A DNA stretch of 60,047 nt, filler included, from Circinaria calcarea (Eukaryota), in assembly GCA_051942165.1 (NCBI GenBank). It is 8 parts of 8 records of this genome, joined end to end, with 100 filler letters (N's around TTAATTAATTAA, not from the genome) between each part and the next. Parts side by side here need not be neighbours in the genome. Positions count along the whole stretch, not along the records: positions 1 to 7,425 come from JAVECS010001331.1; 7 more parts are not named here. One strand, written 5' to 3'. A program made the position numbers and the translations under genes. Under the pieces are notes generated by a model. That model saw nothing but the letters and a program-made list of their open reading frames with translations. It searched no databases and was not told the DNA's origin. Positions 2,471-52,645 of the stretch are shown here, one piece after another. The stretch's first letter is position 1. Each line of letters starts with the position of its first letter.

Positions 2471-4154
2471 CTAGGCAAGATCTTCTGCAACCTCCATCTC
2501 CTCGCCCTCCTCATCATCCTCAATCTCTGCGTCTCCCCCATCTCCATCTTCCACAAACACATTCTCTATTCCCACCTCTTTGAGCCTGGCTTGCATTTCC
2601 TCTCTCCTCTTATCCTGCCACCGCTGCAACGCCGCCGCGGCATGTACCTTGAAGCCAAAGATCCTGGGTTCATACCTCGAAATGGACTTATCCGGTATCA
2701 GGGCAGGGTAAACTTGAAAGAGTATGTTCTGGAAAGAGGAACCGAAATAGGCCCCATCGATGGTGGCATGGCGGGATGATTTCGGGTTGTATAGGTCTTC
2801 ACACTTTGCGCAGTATAGCTTTACGGTTTGAACATGAGGGAGATCGGCCATGCCGGTAGGGAGCAGATGCTCGGATTTGCAGTCGACTCGAGGGCATTTA
2901 CCAAAGTCGCCTTTCTTGAACTTCTCTAGCTTTACAAGAAGTAATTAGGCAAAGGCACCAACAAGGAAAGTGTGAACGTACCATCTTTGCTAGGCCCCTC
3001 GTTGTAGTAATATATCGAGCATGTACCAGGCCATAGAGATGTCTGGCAGACTTTTCTATCGTCTCCCGCATCTCGTCGTCGCAATCAAGATCGAAGACAT
3101 CTGTCACAAGATCTAAAGCATATTGGTAGTACTGAACATCGGTATTCAATCCAGTCAAATTGAAGCGGTCTGTCAGGTAGTCTTCGTCGATCTCACAGAA
3201 GTATTCATTGCCACGAGAAGATATAAACTGCGCCAGTAAAATTAGCTCAAGATCCCAACAACGCAGGCATGAAATTAGATACAGTCGAAAGAATGAAAAG
3301 GTGAAAATTTGAGGATTGACTAAAGAGAGCTTGAACGAGAGTAACATGCGTATGGTGCCATTGATTTTGGTATTGATCTTCGCGCACATTACTCCCACCC
3401 GGTGTATCTCGCCCTTGAGAGAAAGGTCGAAGTAGAAGACATTATGGCTCAAGCAGAATCATGTTGCCATACCCAGTGCTTGTACGGGTTGTAAAGGCTT
3501 ATAGACTCAAAGCCTTTCACTCGGTTATCCATACGTAGTAGTGCTCCGCCGAGGTTCTTTGCTCGACCGATAGTGACGATTGCCGACGAGGAACCATCGA
3601 TCTGTGATTGTTGAATAGTAGGAGCATGGTTTGATCGATGAACAGGGCACTCCCCAAGGCCATTCCCAAGCAAAAGCCGGTAAGGATCTGCTTTTTCGTC
3701 TACTTCTCTGATTGTAAACCGCTTTGAAGGCTTGAACAGGTGACTGACATCTGGGCAAGGGTGATGTCCCTGGCCTGCGGAAGGCTCGGAGGCCATCGGT
3801 CGTTGTTTTGGTCCGACGCATGGCCTCTTCTCTGGTTCATCATCGTCCTCCTTTTCTTTCGAAACCTCTTGGCTCGAGGACGAGGTGTCAAAGTGCTCAA
3901 CGAATGAAGACACGACAGAGGTAGTAACACCATCGGCCAGAAGGATCGACTTGGTCATCCTGAAAGATTTGAAAAAATACTGCAACTAATACATACCCCG
4001 CAGAGAACCTGTGTATTGAGATAGATGCTATGGAAAGAAGAGATCGAAGAGACGCAGATCTGAGTAAGCCGAATCAAAATAAGAAAGCTCGACCTACCCA
4101 GTCTCTCCAGTAACTCGTATAGTCACTATCCGTTTGGCTATTGAAGTCATCCAT
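2471..4154 (-). CDS. CKB2: Casein kinase II regulatory subunit beta (Ckb2-type), about 253 aa
   Basis: Exons 4154-4098 (MDDFNSQTDSDYTSYWRDW), 3227-2982 (FISSRGNEYFCEIDEDY..DRFNLTGL..LYGLVHARY) and 2929-2471 (FGKCPRVDC..KLYCAKC..IDGAYFG). CK2 beta zinc-ribbon motifs are present. Confidence 0.95.
3473..3979 (-). CDS. Putative alternative (first or cassette) coding exon within CK2 beta intron 1
   Basis: Stop-free frame with ATG at 3958 and a CAG acceptor ending at 3980. It ends ...LYNPYKHW at a phase-0 GTATGG donor (3472), in frame with exon 2. Confidence 0.6.
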
Positions 4155-4610
4155 CTTTGAATATCACTACCTCTGCGGCACTCGAAGGACTTTTCGAACA
4201 ATCCCCTATGAAATCTCCCTCCACATTTGTTCTCTAATATATCAGCGCATGATAGATGGGTTCAGATTGTGACTATGGTGGATCGAAAGATGTTTGCCTG
4301 CAAAGTAGTTCGGGTTGGTAGGGCTGACGGCTACGCCACAAGAAAAGGGAGTCTCACGCATGGGCACATTTACTGGCTATAACATAAACAAAGCTATTCG
4401 TCGTTATAATTGGCATATTTATAACATGAAGTTAATTACAGTACTAAAATAATTACATTCATCGCTGTCTCTTATTTCCTAAAGGTTCACCAATACAAAA
4501 ATTGAGGCCCCAATAGCAGATAGGAGGGCTGCTTTGGCTCATTCTCCGGTCGCTACATACATCTAACATTACATTTTTTGTTGCTATTCTATGTCGACTT
4601 CAATTACAGC

Positions 4611-7425
4611 TTATTCAGATCGCGATGAGAAGTAATCCTCGGGATCCTGGCTATCCTGCGGTGATACGCCAGTACTCCTAAGGTCTTCACTATCAGCGCC
4701 TGCCTCGTTTGCTTTGCCATTCTTAACCGCAGTCGGGCTGTATTCAGTATCGTGACCCTTTGGCCGAGGTGTGTTCAAGTTGACTGCTTGTGCATGAGAT
4801 AGATCGTTGAAGCTATTAGCAGGGCTGACTTTTAGGTTGATTCTCTCCATGGCCTCCCGCAATCTGAGACCCGACTCATCAAGCGCCATAAGGAACCGGG
4901 CAAGCTCTTTGCAAAGGTCCCAATCCCCAGCTGCTTTCGCCTTCTGAAAAAGCCGTATGCATTGTTCTGAGCTTGATTCAAGTTCTTCGAATGTATGTAA
5001 TACCAACAAGTATCCGCCTGCTGTCTTCAAAAGGCCTTTTTGTAAAGATTCCTCAAAGAGCTCTTGAGGTGGCGGTAGGTATGCGAATAGCGTACGCCAA
5101 GAGCGGACTTCAGTCTTTCGTGTGCATTGCACAAGGATGTCAAGATAGTCGGGAAAAGACGAGAGAAATGACAAAACCGAGGGCAGCAAGGCATGGTCCT
5201 TTGAAGGTGACGATTCTACTTCAGCGTCCAGCACCGTGTGAAGCAAGACCTCAAGAGCATGCGAATAGTACGGAAGCTGCCGATAATGACAGGATAGATT
5301 CAGAGCGGCAGTGGAGTCGTTTGTGGAAATATAATGATGAAGTATTGGGGGTAGGAATAGTTGTGTCTTCACGTCAGTTAGCCACTACGCTATCTTTTCA
5401 CGGAAATCACATACCCTGATAGTGAAGCGGAAGAAGGCAAAATATACATCACGACGCTGAACCAAGTCCAGATCAATACCTATGATAACTCCTTTTTTGA
5501 GTGCAATAGATGCAGGGTAAAAGTCTGTTGAAATGGATATTGGTAACTGTACGTCTTTGCCTCCTTCTGAAGATGGAGATTTCAAAAGATCCTGAATGTC
5601 GGTCCAACAATGGGTTTGTCGCCCATCAAAGTACCACAGCGAGTCTCGTAGCCCAGTCTCGGTCTGTACGCTGTCATCATCATTATTATCGTTGTTGCTC
5701 TCTTCTAATCTTGAATTCTCAATAGTAGTTGGCGGGATGTATTGGTCTCGTGTGAAGATGAAATACTCGACATCATATGCCACGATTCGCATATCATATT
5801 TCAAAGCACCATCATCATCTTTTGATGGTTGAAGCAAAACAAGCTTCGCATCGACAAGGAAAAGTACGGAAGCGTGGACAACGTCTTGGGATGGATCTCC
5901 ATCAACTGCCTGATGTCAACGCCAGCCACAAATAGGAAGAAAACGTACTAACATAGTTGGTAATCCGGGATAAACCATGTAACAGCACGAACACGGGCGG
6001 GTGCTCGCACAATGCCATGTAGGCCAATCTGGCCCATTTGCACAAGCTGCACGGCAGCGTTGGAAGCAGTAATCACATAATGATAGAGTATATTTTCTTG
6101 GGTATAGACCAGTAACGAGTCATCTCCGATCCGTGATGTTACCACTATAGGTGCGGGAAACTGCTCAGCGAAGACCAAGGAAGGTTTATTGAGTCCAAGC
6201 TCCCGCGAATAGAGATGTAACTAATACGGTTCAGCAAGTGCTATGAAGGACGTGCTATGTAAGATTTACTCACCTCATAACTTTCACCCACCTCCAAGGC
6301 AGCAATGAGTATATGCTCATGCCAGCACATACCACCCCGCACCGCGAATGCATTCTCAGCGTCGATATCATCAAATGTCTTCCATCGTCCACTATTAACA
6401 CTGTAGTGTGCGAGACCTCGCCGCCCCGCTACGGCAATATACCGACCGTCTGGCGAGACGGTAGCGCAACGAATAGGTTGCTGCCTTGCTAGATATAATG
6501 CTGGGATCTGCACCTGATGCCATAAAGATGGGTCTGCTGAAATGGGAACAAGGTTTGGTAAATCATGACCTCGATATAACATTAGAGATGAGGCAGTGTG
6601 AAGTAACATTCGTGAAAGGTTGGCAGCACTGAAGCAGCCTGTTACAGCGCTTTTCGCCAGCTCCATAACCCATATCCTACTTTCATTCGGAATAGTGAAT
6701 ATTATTTCAGACCCCCCACTAGTCCAGTGTGCGGACTGAATGCCGGTGAGCCAGCAGTCATCGTTGTCCTGAGATATTGCTAAGTCTGAACCAAAACTAC
6801 TGGCCCCTTGCTTTCCATAAACACTCCATATGACCCAGCCCCTCTCGTAGCAAACGAACAGGCAGTACCCATCAGGTGAGTAAGCTATGGAGGTAATGGG
6901 TCCTGTGGTCGACAGTGAAGCCGGAGGTGCCAAAGTATGTGAAATGGGAATATTTCCGACGTAATCTTTGGCAGTGTATACATGAACCGCTCCGTTGGCA
7001 CAGCCTATAGCAAGCAACGAAAATCTTGCATTGATGGCGCCTTTTGTAGCTGATGTATCTTCTTGACTTGGTGCGTGAAAGCCATATCCGCGGAATATTT
7101 TTTTCGATGTATCCGGTTCCTGGCGAGTCCCTGAACCTTTTTGGACAGCATACGCTCGACCATCGCTTGTGATGAAAATGTACAGACTCATCGCTCGATC
7201 ATATATCATATCCAGAATGTTGCTCTTCTTGTTCATCCATGGCATCCGGTTCAGAAGTTCAGTAGCTGTCTGGGCTCCATTGTTATCTGGCGTCCAGCGT
7301 ATGCATTGTACCGCTGCAGGCCTCTTCGTGGCTACTACGAGCTCGTCCTCTAGTGCCAGCACCTTATCGATCCCAGCATCTATTTTGATGATCATCCGAA
7401 ACCGAATATTAACCTCGCGCTGGCC
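4611..7425 (-). CDS. RIC1: Ric1 (Ric1-Rgp1 GEF subunit), 5'-truncated by the contig end
   Basis: WD-like N-terminal part (SPDGRYIAVAGRRGLAHYS..GRWK) and RIC1 domain (CTRKTEVRSWRTLF..KTAGGYLLVL..DWDLCKELARFL). Three introns link the ORFs at 6241-7395, 5948-6178, 5385-5837 and 4611-5372. Confidence 0.9.
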
Positions 7426-7525
7426 NNNNNNNNNNNNNNNNNNNNNNNNNNNNNNNNNNNNNNNNNNNNTTAATTAATTAANNNNNNNNNNNNNNNNNNN
7501 NNNNNNNNNNNNNNNNNNNNNNNNN
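7426..7525. other. Artificial contig linker
   Basis: 44 N + TTAATTAATTAA (stop codons in all six frames) + 44 N. Confidence 0.99.
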
Positions 7526-14948: not shown

Positions 14949-15048
14949 NNNNNNNNNNNNNNNNNNNNNNNNNNNNNNNNNNNNNNNNNNNNTTAATTAA
15001 TTAANNNNNNNNNNNNNNNNNNNNNNNNNNNNNNNNNNNNNNNNNNNN
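14949..15048. other. Artificial contig linker
   Basis: 44 N + TTAATTAATTAA + 44 N. Confidence 0.99.
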
Positions 15049-22470: not shown

Positions 22471-22570
22471 NNNNNNNNNNNNNNNNNNNNNNNNNNNNNN
22501 NNNNNNNNNNNNNNTTAATTAATTAANNNNNNNNNNNNNNNNNNNNNNNNNNNNNNNNNNNNNNNNNNNN
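22471..22570. other. Artificial contig linker
   Basis: 44 N + TTAATTAATTAA + 44 N. Confidence 0.99.
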
Positions 22571-29990: not shown

Positions 29991-30090
29991 NNNNNNNNNN
30001 NNNNNNNNNNNNNNNNNNNNNNNNNNNNNNNNNNTTAATTAATTAANNNNNNNNNNNNNNNNNNNNNNNNNNNNNNNNNNNNNNNNNNNN
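29991..30090. other. Artificial contig linker
   Basis: 44 N + TTAATTAATTAA + 44 N. Confidence 0.99.
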
Positions 30091-37509: not shown

Positions 37510-37609
37510 NNNNNNNNNNNNNNNNNNNNNNNNNNNNNNNNNNNNNNNNNNNNTTAATTAATTAANNNNNNNNNNNNNNNNNNNNNNNNNNNNNNNNNNN
37601 NNNNNNNNN
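37510..37609. other. Artificial contig linker
   Basis: 44 N + TTAATTAATTAA + 44 N. Confidence 0.99.
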
Positions 37610-45028: not shown

Positions 45029-45128
45029 NNNNNNNNNNNNNNNNNNNNNNNNNNNNNNNNNNNNNNNNNNNNTTAATTAATTAANNNNNNNNNNNNNNNN
45101 NNNNNNNNNNNNNNNNNNNNNNNNNNNN
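45029..45128. other. Artificial contig linker
   Basis: 44 N + TTAATTAATTAA + 44 N. Confidence 0.99.
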
Positions 45129-52545: not shown

Positions 52546-52645
52546 NNNNNNNNNNNNNNNNNNNNNNNNNNNNNNNNNNNNNNNNNNNNTTAATTAATTA
52601 ANNNNNNNNNNNNNNNNNNNNNNNNNNNNNNNNNNNNNNNNNNNN
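52546..52645. other. Artificial contig linker
   Basis: 44 N + TTAATTAATTAA + 44 N. Confidence 0.99.

Follow-up and report, generated by a model that had tools for sequence, protein, structure and literature searches.

The gene ckb2 of the lichen-forming fungus Circinaria calcarea (Megasporaceae, Pertusariales, Lecanoromycetes), which encodes the beta-2 subunit of casein kinase II (CK2), lies on the minus strand of the stretch of DNA analyzed here (60,047 nt with filler, from NCBI GenBank assembly GCA_051942165.1; hereafter the window), and its 870-nt first intron holds a same-strand, ATG-started open reading frame (ORF) of 486 nt and 162 codons (P0001; 3958-3473, minus strand) that ends in YNPYKHW. 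Judging from sequence, we put at about even the chance that this frame is a lineage-restricted, fast-evolving alternative first coding exon spliced to exon 2, a cassette variant included. Such a coding exon would be restricted to a narrow group of lichen-forming fungi around Circinaria and would be reached by a transcript that starts inside intron 1 or, less likely, enters via an in-frame CAG at 3980. Translation would begin at the ATG at 3958, and splicing would run from a GTATGG donor at 3472 to the normal exon 2 acceptor at 3228. The predicted product is 396 amino acids (aa) long, and in it the universal 19-residue acidic N-terminus would be replaced by about 160 fast-evolving, probably unstructured residues, forming an arm with a conserved starting motif of about 20 residues and a conserved ...LYxPY[KR] end abutting the CK2 beta fold. 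The short canonical form of 253 aa is made as well, and any effect of the long form on CK2 is one that we infer.

The host gene is a standard ckb2. Its canonical coding exon 1 (4154-4098, minus strand; 57 nt, 19 codons; MDDFNSQTDSDYTSYWRDW) ends in YWRDW with a 3' phase of 0 and is followed in the canonical transcript by intron 1 (4097-3228, minus strand; 870 nt), which runs from a GTAGGT donor at 4097 to a CAG acceptor closing at 3228 and has a branch-like CTAAT motif at 3245-3241 (minus strand). Exon 2 (3227-2982, minus strand; 246 nt, 82 codons) carries the first part of the CK_II_beta domain (Pfam PF01214, E 9.9e-25, 87.8 bits) and has RNA joints at both ends, intron 2 (2981-2930, minus strand) is 52 nt long, and exon 3 (2929-2471, minus strand; 459 nt, 152 codons plus a TAG stop) carries the remainder of the domain (E 8.5e-36, 123.9 bits for the exon 3 frame) and an acidic tail. 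The curated cut-off for PF01214 is 27 bits, and human CK2 beta chains match the family at E 2.6e-67. The nearest named orthologues are casein kinase II subunit beta-2 proteins of Lecanoromycetes and other Pezizomycotina. RNA data came from two runs, X1 and X2, metatranscriptomes of one study stored as contigs; the contigs are 90-99% alike to the window and thus come from a relative. The joint 4098/3227, which skips 870 nt bounded by CT..AC on the plus strand, is present in one contig each of X1 and X2 (shorter side 140 and 171 letters), and the joint 2929/2982 in one X1 contig. The short canonical form (253 aa) is real, and it is the sole form with RNA support.

The intronic frame is part of a stop-to-stop frame of 178 codons (3985-3449, minus strand). 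The proposed splice donor, GTATGG at 3472-3467 (minus strand), is in phase 0, matching exon 2, and is the one used in the deposited gene model described below. Near the 5' end of the frame, the in-frame CAG at 3982-3980 (minus strand) is a candidate cassette acceptor, also in phase 0; the exon would then begin at 3979 and run 507 nt to 3473, and no strong branch motif was seen upstream by eye. A first-pass annotation of this DNA had given the coordinates, phases, frame, donor and CAG, all of which check out on the minus strand, and its product sizes of 253, 396 and 422 aa follow from exons of 57, 246 and 459 nt plus 486 or 507 nt. It had also called intron 1 more than ten times the typical intron size, which holds for 870 nt against 52 nt, the comparison being with the single other RNA-supported intron. 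Dinucleotide-preserving shuffling of intron 1 produced a sense-strand frame of at least this length 31 times in 5000 (38 of 5000 over six frames), and the three sense frames of the intron are all partly open, over 178, 103 and 84 codons. The length of the intronic frame alone is unusual, not decisive.

Relatives carry the same frame. Among 44 candidates in a search for proteins of near length, four homologues (P0002-P0005, 165-204 aa) cover 99-100% of the 162 residues, with BLASTP identities of 80, 55, 50 and 50%, respectively (80, 55, 51 and 51% in a MAFFT alignment). The sequences fall into two clades, the window with P0002 and P0003 with P0004 and P0005, and between-clade identity is 0.48-0.55. 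All four homologues are open over the full length of the frame, and the only indels, of 1, 1 and 5 codons, are in frame. Invariant residues make up 19 of the first 23 positions (MTKSILLADGVTTSVVSSFVEHF; 3958-3889, minus strand), the best-conserved block in the five sequences, vs 7 of 40 and 10 of 45 in the middle, and the end ...LYxPY[KR] is kept. Scans for the relatives' DNA gave 215 pattern matches in Joint Genome Institute (JGI) metagenomes and 19 in prokaryote genome contigs, none of them confirmed.

The pattern of change among these sequences is that of a coding frame in several respects. In a neutral simulation, the DNA of the window was mutated to the observed identities, conditioned on no stops; 0.30-0.34 substitutions per site were needed to reach P0003-P0005, over which about six stop-creating changes would be expected in each, and none is seen. 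The mean BLOSUM62 score of the mismatches was reached in 48, 10, 14 and 0 of 300 neutral runs for P0002, P0003, P0004 and P0005, respectively; the real replacements are milder than neutral ones. Single-base replacements amount to 34-36 at first codon positions vs 21.5-24.5 at second positions. Scored for codon usage in frame, the sequence gives 0.128, within the range of true coding sequence (0.148 +/- 0.041 over 36 chunks of the window) and higher than any of the other five frames (0.016-0.085); of 180 chunks taken off-frame or antisense, 6% scored as high, as did 9% of 150 frames from ORF-poor segments. G+C content by codon position is 0.58/0.44/0.50 in the frame vs 0.555/0.441/0.493 in the long ORFs of the window. 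We therefore regard the intronic frame as probably coding, with good though incomplete confidence.

Coding appears to end at the proposed donor. Immediately past its last residue, the frame continues with V (GTN) in all five sequences and then with W (TGG) in four of them, so that at the protein level the expectation of a frame and donor kept in relatives is borne out, by four of four full-length homologues and five of five GT codons. Counted from the V codon, stops fall at codon 2 (P0003), 3 (P0004), 8 (window), 33 (P0002) and 36 (P0005), positions such as random sequence would give. Between the window and P0002, a stop and a frameshift occur within 17 codons past the GT and none in the preceding 162 codons. 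With its stop at codon 8 and its frameshift near codon 17 relative to P0002, the stretch 3' of the donor (3466-3374, minus strand) behaves as non-coding sequence. The stop pattern is easier to reconcile with an exon that ends at the donor than with a gene that has a stop of its own.

The predicted 396-aa form is also a database entry. The NCBI protein 'MAG: hypothetical protein Q9187_005581 [Circinaria calcarea]' (P0006, 396 aa, 100% identical), the single match among 930 candidates in a search for longer proteins, consists of the intronic frame (residues 1-162) joined at YKHW/FISSRG to exons 2 and 3, residue for residue the predicted form. The exon, which the first-pass annotation had described as hidden, is thus already used as exon 1 in the deposited model, and what the deposit omits is the canonical 19-aa exon. 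P0006 matches PF01214 over profile positions 2-182 (230.6 bits), with Y159-K-H-W162 placed at profile positions 2-5, where W16-R-D-W19 stands in a canonical orthologue, and W162-F163 aligns with W12-F13 of solved human chains. An aromatic-x-x-W/F pattern had been proposed for the junction; it holds for the window and its closest relative only, the residues ahead of the GT being ...Y[KR]QR in the other three, more distant relatives, with Y at -4 and a basic residue at -3 kept in all five sequences. That the deposited model chose exactly this exon and donor favors an alternative first exon weakly, because the model looks ab initio.

Orthologue annotations give this model its context. The CK2 beta N-terminus is nearly identical across the Pezizomycotina in our orthologue set, the best 120 of 1124 matches: a canonical peptide ending in [YF]WR[DE]W directly precedes FISSRGNEYF in 74 of the 120, with an N-terminus of at most 21 residues in 64 of those 74, and in another 9 the canonical peptide is present with extra residues before exon 2. 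Many of the 37 entries in which the canonical peptide is absent end in Q before exon 2, as if the model had read through the CAG acceptor. With its very short first exon and long first intron, ckb2 is a gene whose annotation goes wrong repeatedly across the Pezizomycotina. The Pleosporales models P0094, P0111 and P0116 (Curvularia, Stemphylium and Pyrenophora) share similar residues just before exon 2 (...LRSRWW.DY...), which in two of the three come after the canonical exon 1 peptide; in that order, too, the first intron may be conserved and readable in frame, or an additional exon may exist.

The frame belongs to no recognized family. No Pfam family matched it at E up to 1, nor did any match P0002 or P0005; the best ESM Atlas score was 0.89, under the 0.9 level and to unnamed clusters only. 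Searching a five-sequence profile against 1.84 billion representatives brought up, besides the cluster of the clade itself, just one repetitive surface protein from a bacterium, which we take as a spurious compositional match. The first-pass annotation had called the extension disordered, which a mean predicted local distance difference test (pLDDT) score of 39 from AlphaFold2 indicates weakly. An origin by duplication of exon 1 or its 5' flank was rejected: the scores of local alignments at the DNA and protein levels were reached by 135 of 500 and 1536 of 2000 shuffles, and in a further comparison by 295 of 300. The N-terminal extensions of other ckb2 models were likewise rejected as homologues, the best profile match among the 42 longest having E 0.025 and the extension of the Sticta model an hhalign probability of 0.6%. 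Among 46 orthologue extensions with at least 12 non-canonical residues before exon 2 (of 119), none was convincingly similar to the first 30 residues of the frame; the extension of P0017 beat 300 of 300 shuffles, and was set aside because 46 comparisons were made and the window's own flank shows nothing.

Several observations weigh against an alternative first exon spliced to exon 2. The relatives were compared by protein sequence alone; because the protein database shows intact ORFs only, relatives with a broken frame are invisible in it. All the near-length homologues read through the donor, as genomic ORFs would. The window and P0002 are 80% identical in the frame and share 29 of 33 residues in the tail after the donor, and P0002 and P0005 are 48% identical in the frame and share 16 of 31 in the tail. 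The frame thus evolves about as fast as the post-donor stretch, so that amino-acid constraint is weak outside the two ends, and selection may mainly keep an open frame and both ends, as in disordered linkers. At the junction itself, the W of the window is R in three of the five sequences. Among 5.8 billion proteins searched, none besides the deposited model joins the frame to CK2 beta, and that model's departure from the usual N-terminus is weak evidence, since 37 of the best 120 orthologue entries are also without the canonical peptide. In the X1 and X2 contigs, which drop minor forms, the junctions 3473/3227 and 4098/3979 are unseen and only 4098/3227 is joined; no contig falls on 3271-4074, which says nothing on absence because the contigs are those of a relative.

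Much of this would also suit an untranslated frame, one left open by chance or as a relic in a long intron with a regulatory role, picked by an ab initio gene finder and kept by chance in the relatives seen. Over most of its length the frame is conserved no better than flanking intron, broken copies could not show in the protein database, and deposited ckb2 models often have a wrong first exon; to these can be added the 31 of 5000 shuffles that match its length, the three partly open sense frames, the lack of a Pfam family or of a homologue outside the clade, and the pLDDT of 39. Chance retention would nevertheless have to account for the absence, in any of the four homologues, of the roughly six stop-creating changes expected in each distant lineage, for three indels that are all in frame, for replacements more conservative than neutral, for codon usage and G+C periodicity that are gene-like in this frame only, and for 19 invariant residues among the first 23. 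We consider an untranslated frame unlikely, while still to be reckoned with.

Distinctly unlikely, in our estimate, is an independent nested gene with its own transcript inside intron 1, unspliced to exon 2 and encoding an orphan protein of 165-204 aa with a variable C-terminal tail. It would draw on the same coding evidence as the alternative first exon; every database homologue is a stand-alone ORF, and in P0002 and P0005 (two of the five sequences) the frame runs on for 32-35 codons past the donor with 16 of 31 residues identical and whole-codon gaps only. A same-strand gene that ends within an intron, however, would need a polyadenylation site, which would cut off the host transcript. The stop position, moreover, is unconserved (codons 2, 3, 8, 33 and 36), the conserved end ...LYxPY[KR] stands exactly at an in-phase GT, and searches for a family or fold of such a protein came up empty. 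Inclusion of the frame as a cassette exon between exons 1 and 2 (exon 1 to the CAG at 3980, then 3979-3473, for a 422-aa product with the acidic N-terminus kept and 169 residues inserted), a sub-variant counted within the alternative-exon reading, is very improbable: the two junctions would keep phase 0 and the open stretch starts at 3985, but no CTRAY-type branch motif was seen by eye in the 40 nt before 3980, a consensus-like GTATGT lies just upstream at 3996-3991, the high conservation of M1 and the residues that follow suits a site where translation begins more than a segment inside a protein, and the insert would split a YWRDW/F junction that is contiguous in 74 of the 120 orthologues.

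Other features of the locus were noted. On the minus strand within intron 1, a tract rich in pyrimidines and closed by ATAG (AG at 4029-4028) could form the 3' end of an intron of typical size, 70 nt, that starts at the canonical donor, and the GTATGT at 3996-3991 that follows would bound a frame-shifting 31-nt micro-exon (by eye; region 3991-4028). Rfam gave no match over 3100-4300 at E up to 1, and thus no RNA family in intron 1, and a repeat search found no direct repeats and a single 15-nt imperfect inverted pair. Directly upstream of ckb2 on the same strand is a homologue of RIC1 (4611-7425, ending at 4611) with a C-terminal solenoid (E 5e-67) and a second beta-propeller. The roughly 450 nt between the two genes leave room for the 3' end of RIC1 and the ckb2 promoter; ckb2 RNA contigs extend to 4267 or beyond, which narrows the space for the canonical promoter to about 340 nt. 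In the 5' untranslated region (4188-4231), 10 of 44 places differ from the RNA contigs of the relative, a rough measure of its neutral divergence, and the coding exons differ at about 4-5% of positions, at every third base. The window also contains paired runs of 44 N, with 12 bases between, every 7.52 kb or so (7426-7525, 14949-15048, 22471-22570, 29991-30090, 37510-37609, 45029-45128 and 52546-52645), which look like the result of cutting or masking at regular steps and not like natural gaps; the database lists a contig of 7425 nt for the deposited protein, as long as the sequence ahead of the first N run.

Few regulatory proteins of eukaryotes are as conserved as CK2 beta, and the canonical gene of C. 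calcarea conforms to that of other Pezizomycotina in its PF01214 domain and in the 19-aa exon 1 and W/F intron position common to 74 of the 120 orthologues; it differs in that the N-terminal extensions of other models are unrelated to the Circinaria frame. Alternative first exons and intronic promoters that give N-terminal isoforms are a general eukaryotic mechanism. The frame in intron 1 resembles that mechanism in having a second start codon in an intronic exon, its own in-phase donor and a common exon 2 acceptor, whereas the Circinaria case is known from the genome sequence alone. We found no literature report of N-terminal isoforms of fungal CK2 beta, and no paper on the C. calcarea assembly. 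In practical terms, the deposited 396-aa model is without the RNA-supported canonical first exon.

A more tentative proposal, to which we give somewhat less than an even chance, is that lichen fungi of the Circinaria group invented a new, fast-evolving alternative first exon in the near-invariant ckb2, and that its product would be a flexible arm of 160 residues whose conserved tip of about 20 residues docks a lineage-specific partner or sets the location or turnover of CK2. If confirmed, the alternative first exon would give a clear natural example of how an exon arises in a gene that is essential and slow to evolve, and would offer a handle on the re-targeting of CK2 in lichen fungi.

Two known systems offer parallels. 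In Drosophila, a single CK2 beta gene yields isoforms by alternative transcription and splicing, with a shared core, one differing end and different activity in vivo (PMC5374408). There it is a C-terminal tail of about 15-20 aa that differs, proven by transcripts and rescue tests (PMC5374408), whereas the Circinaria difference is N-terminal, much larger and predicted. Plant CK2 beta has an extra N-terminal region that is without homology to known domains, is organized as short conserved motifs, and is reported to lower holoenzyme activity, stabilize the subunit and carry autophosphorylation sites (PMC3137599). The predicted Circinaria protein is like it in adding a further segment to the N-terminal side of a CK2 beta that is standard elsewhere; no homology to the plant-type domain was found (Pfam at E up to 1, and the profile searched against 1.84 billion representatives). 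The plant domain is about 90 aa and constitutive (PMC3137599), whereas the Circinaria region, at about 160 aa, would be optional and would replace the acidic N-terminus. If the alternative first exon is real, it would parallel, in fungi, the N-terminal domain specific to plant CK2 beta, with the difference that promoter choice could switch it on or off.

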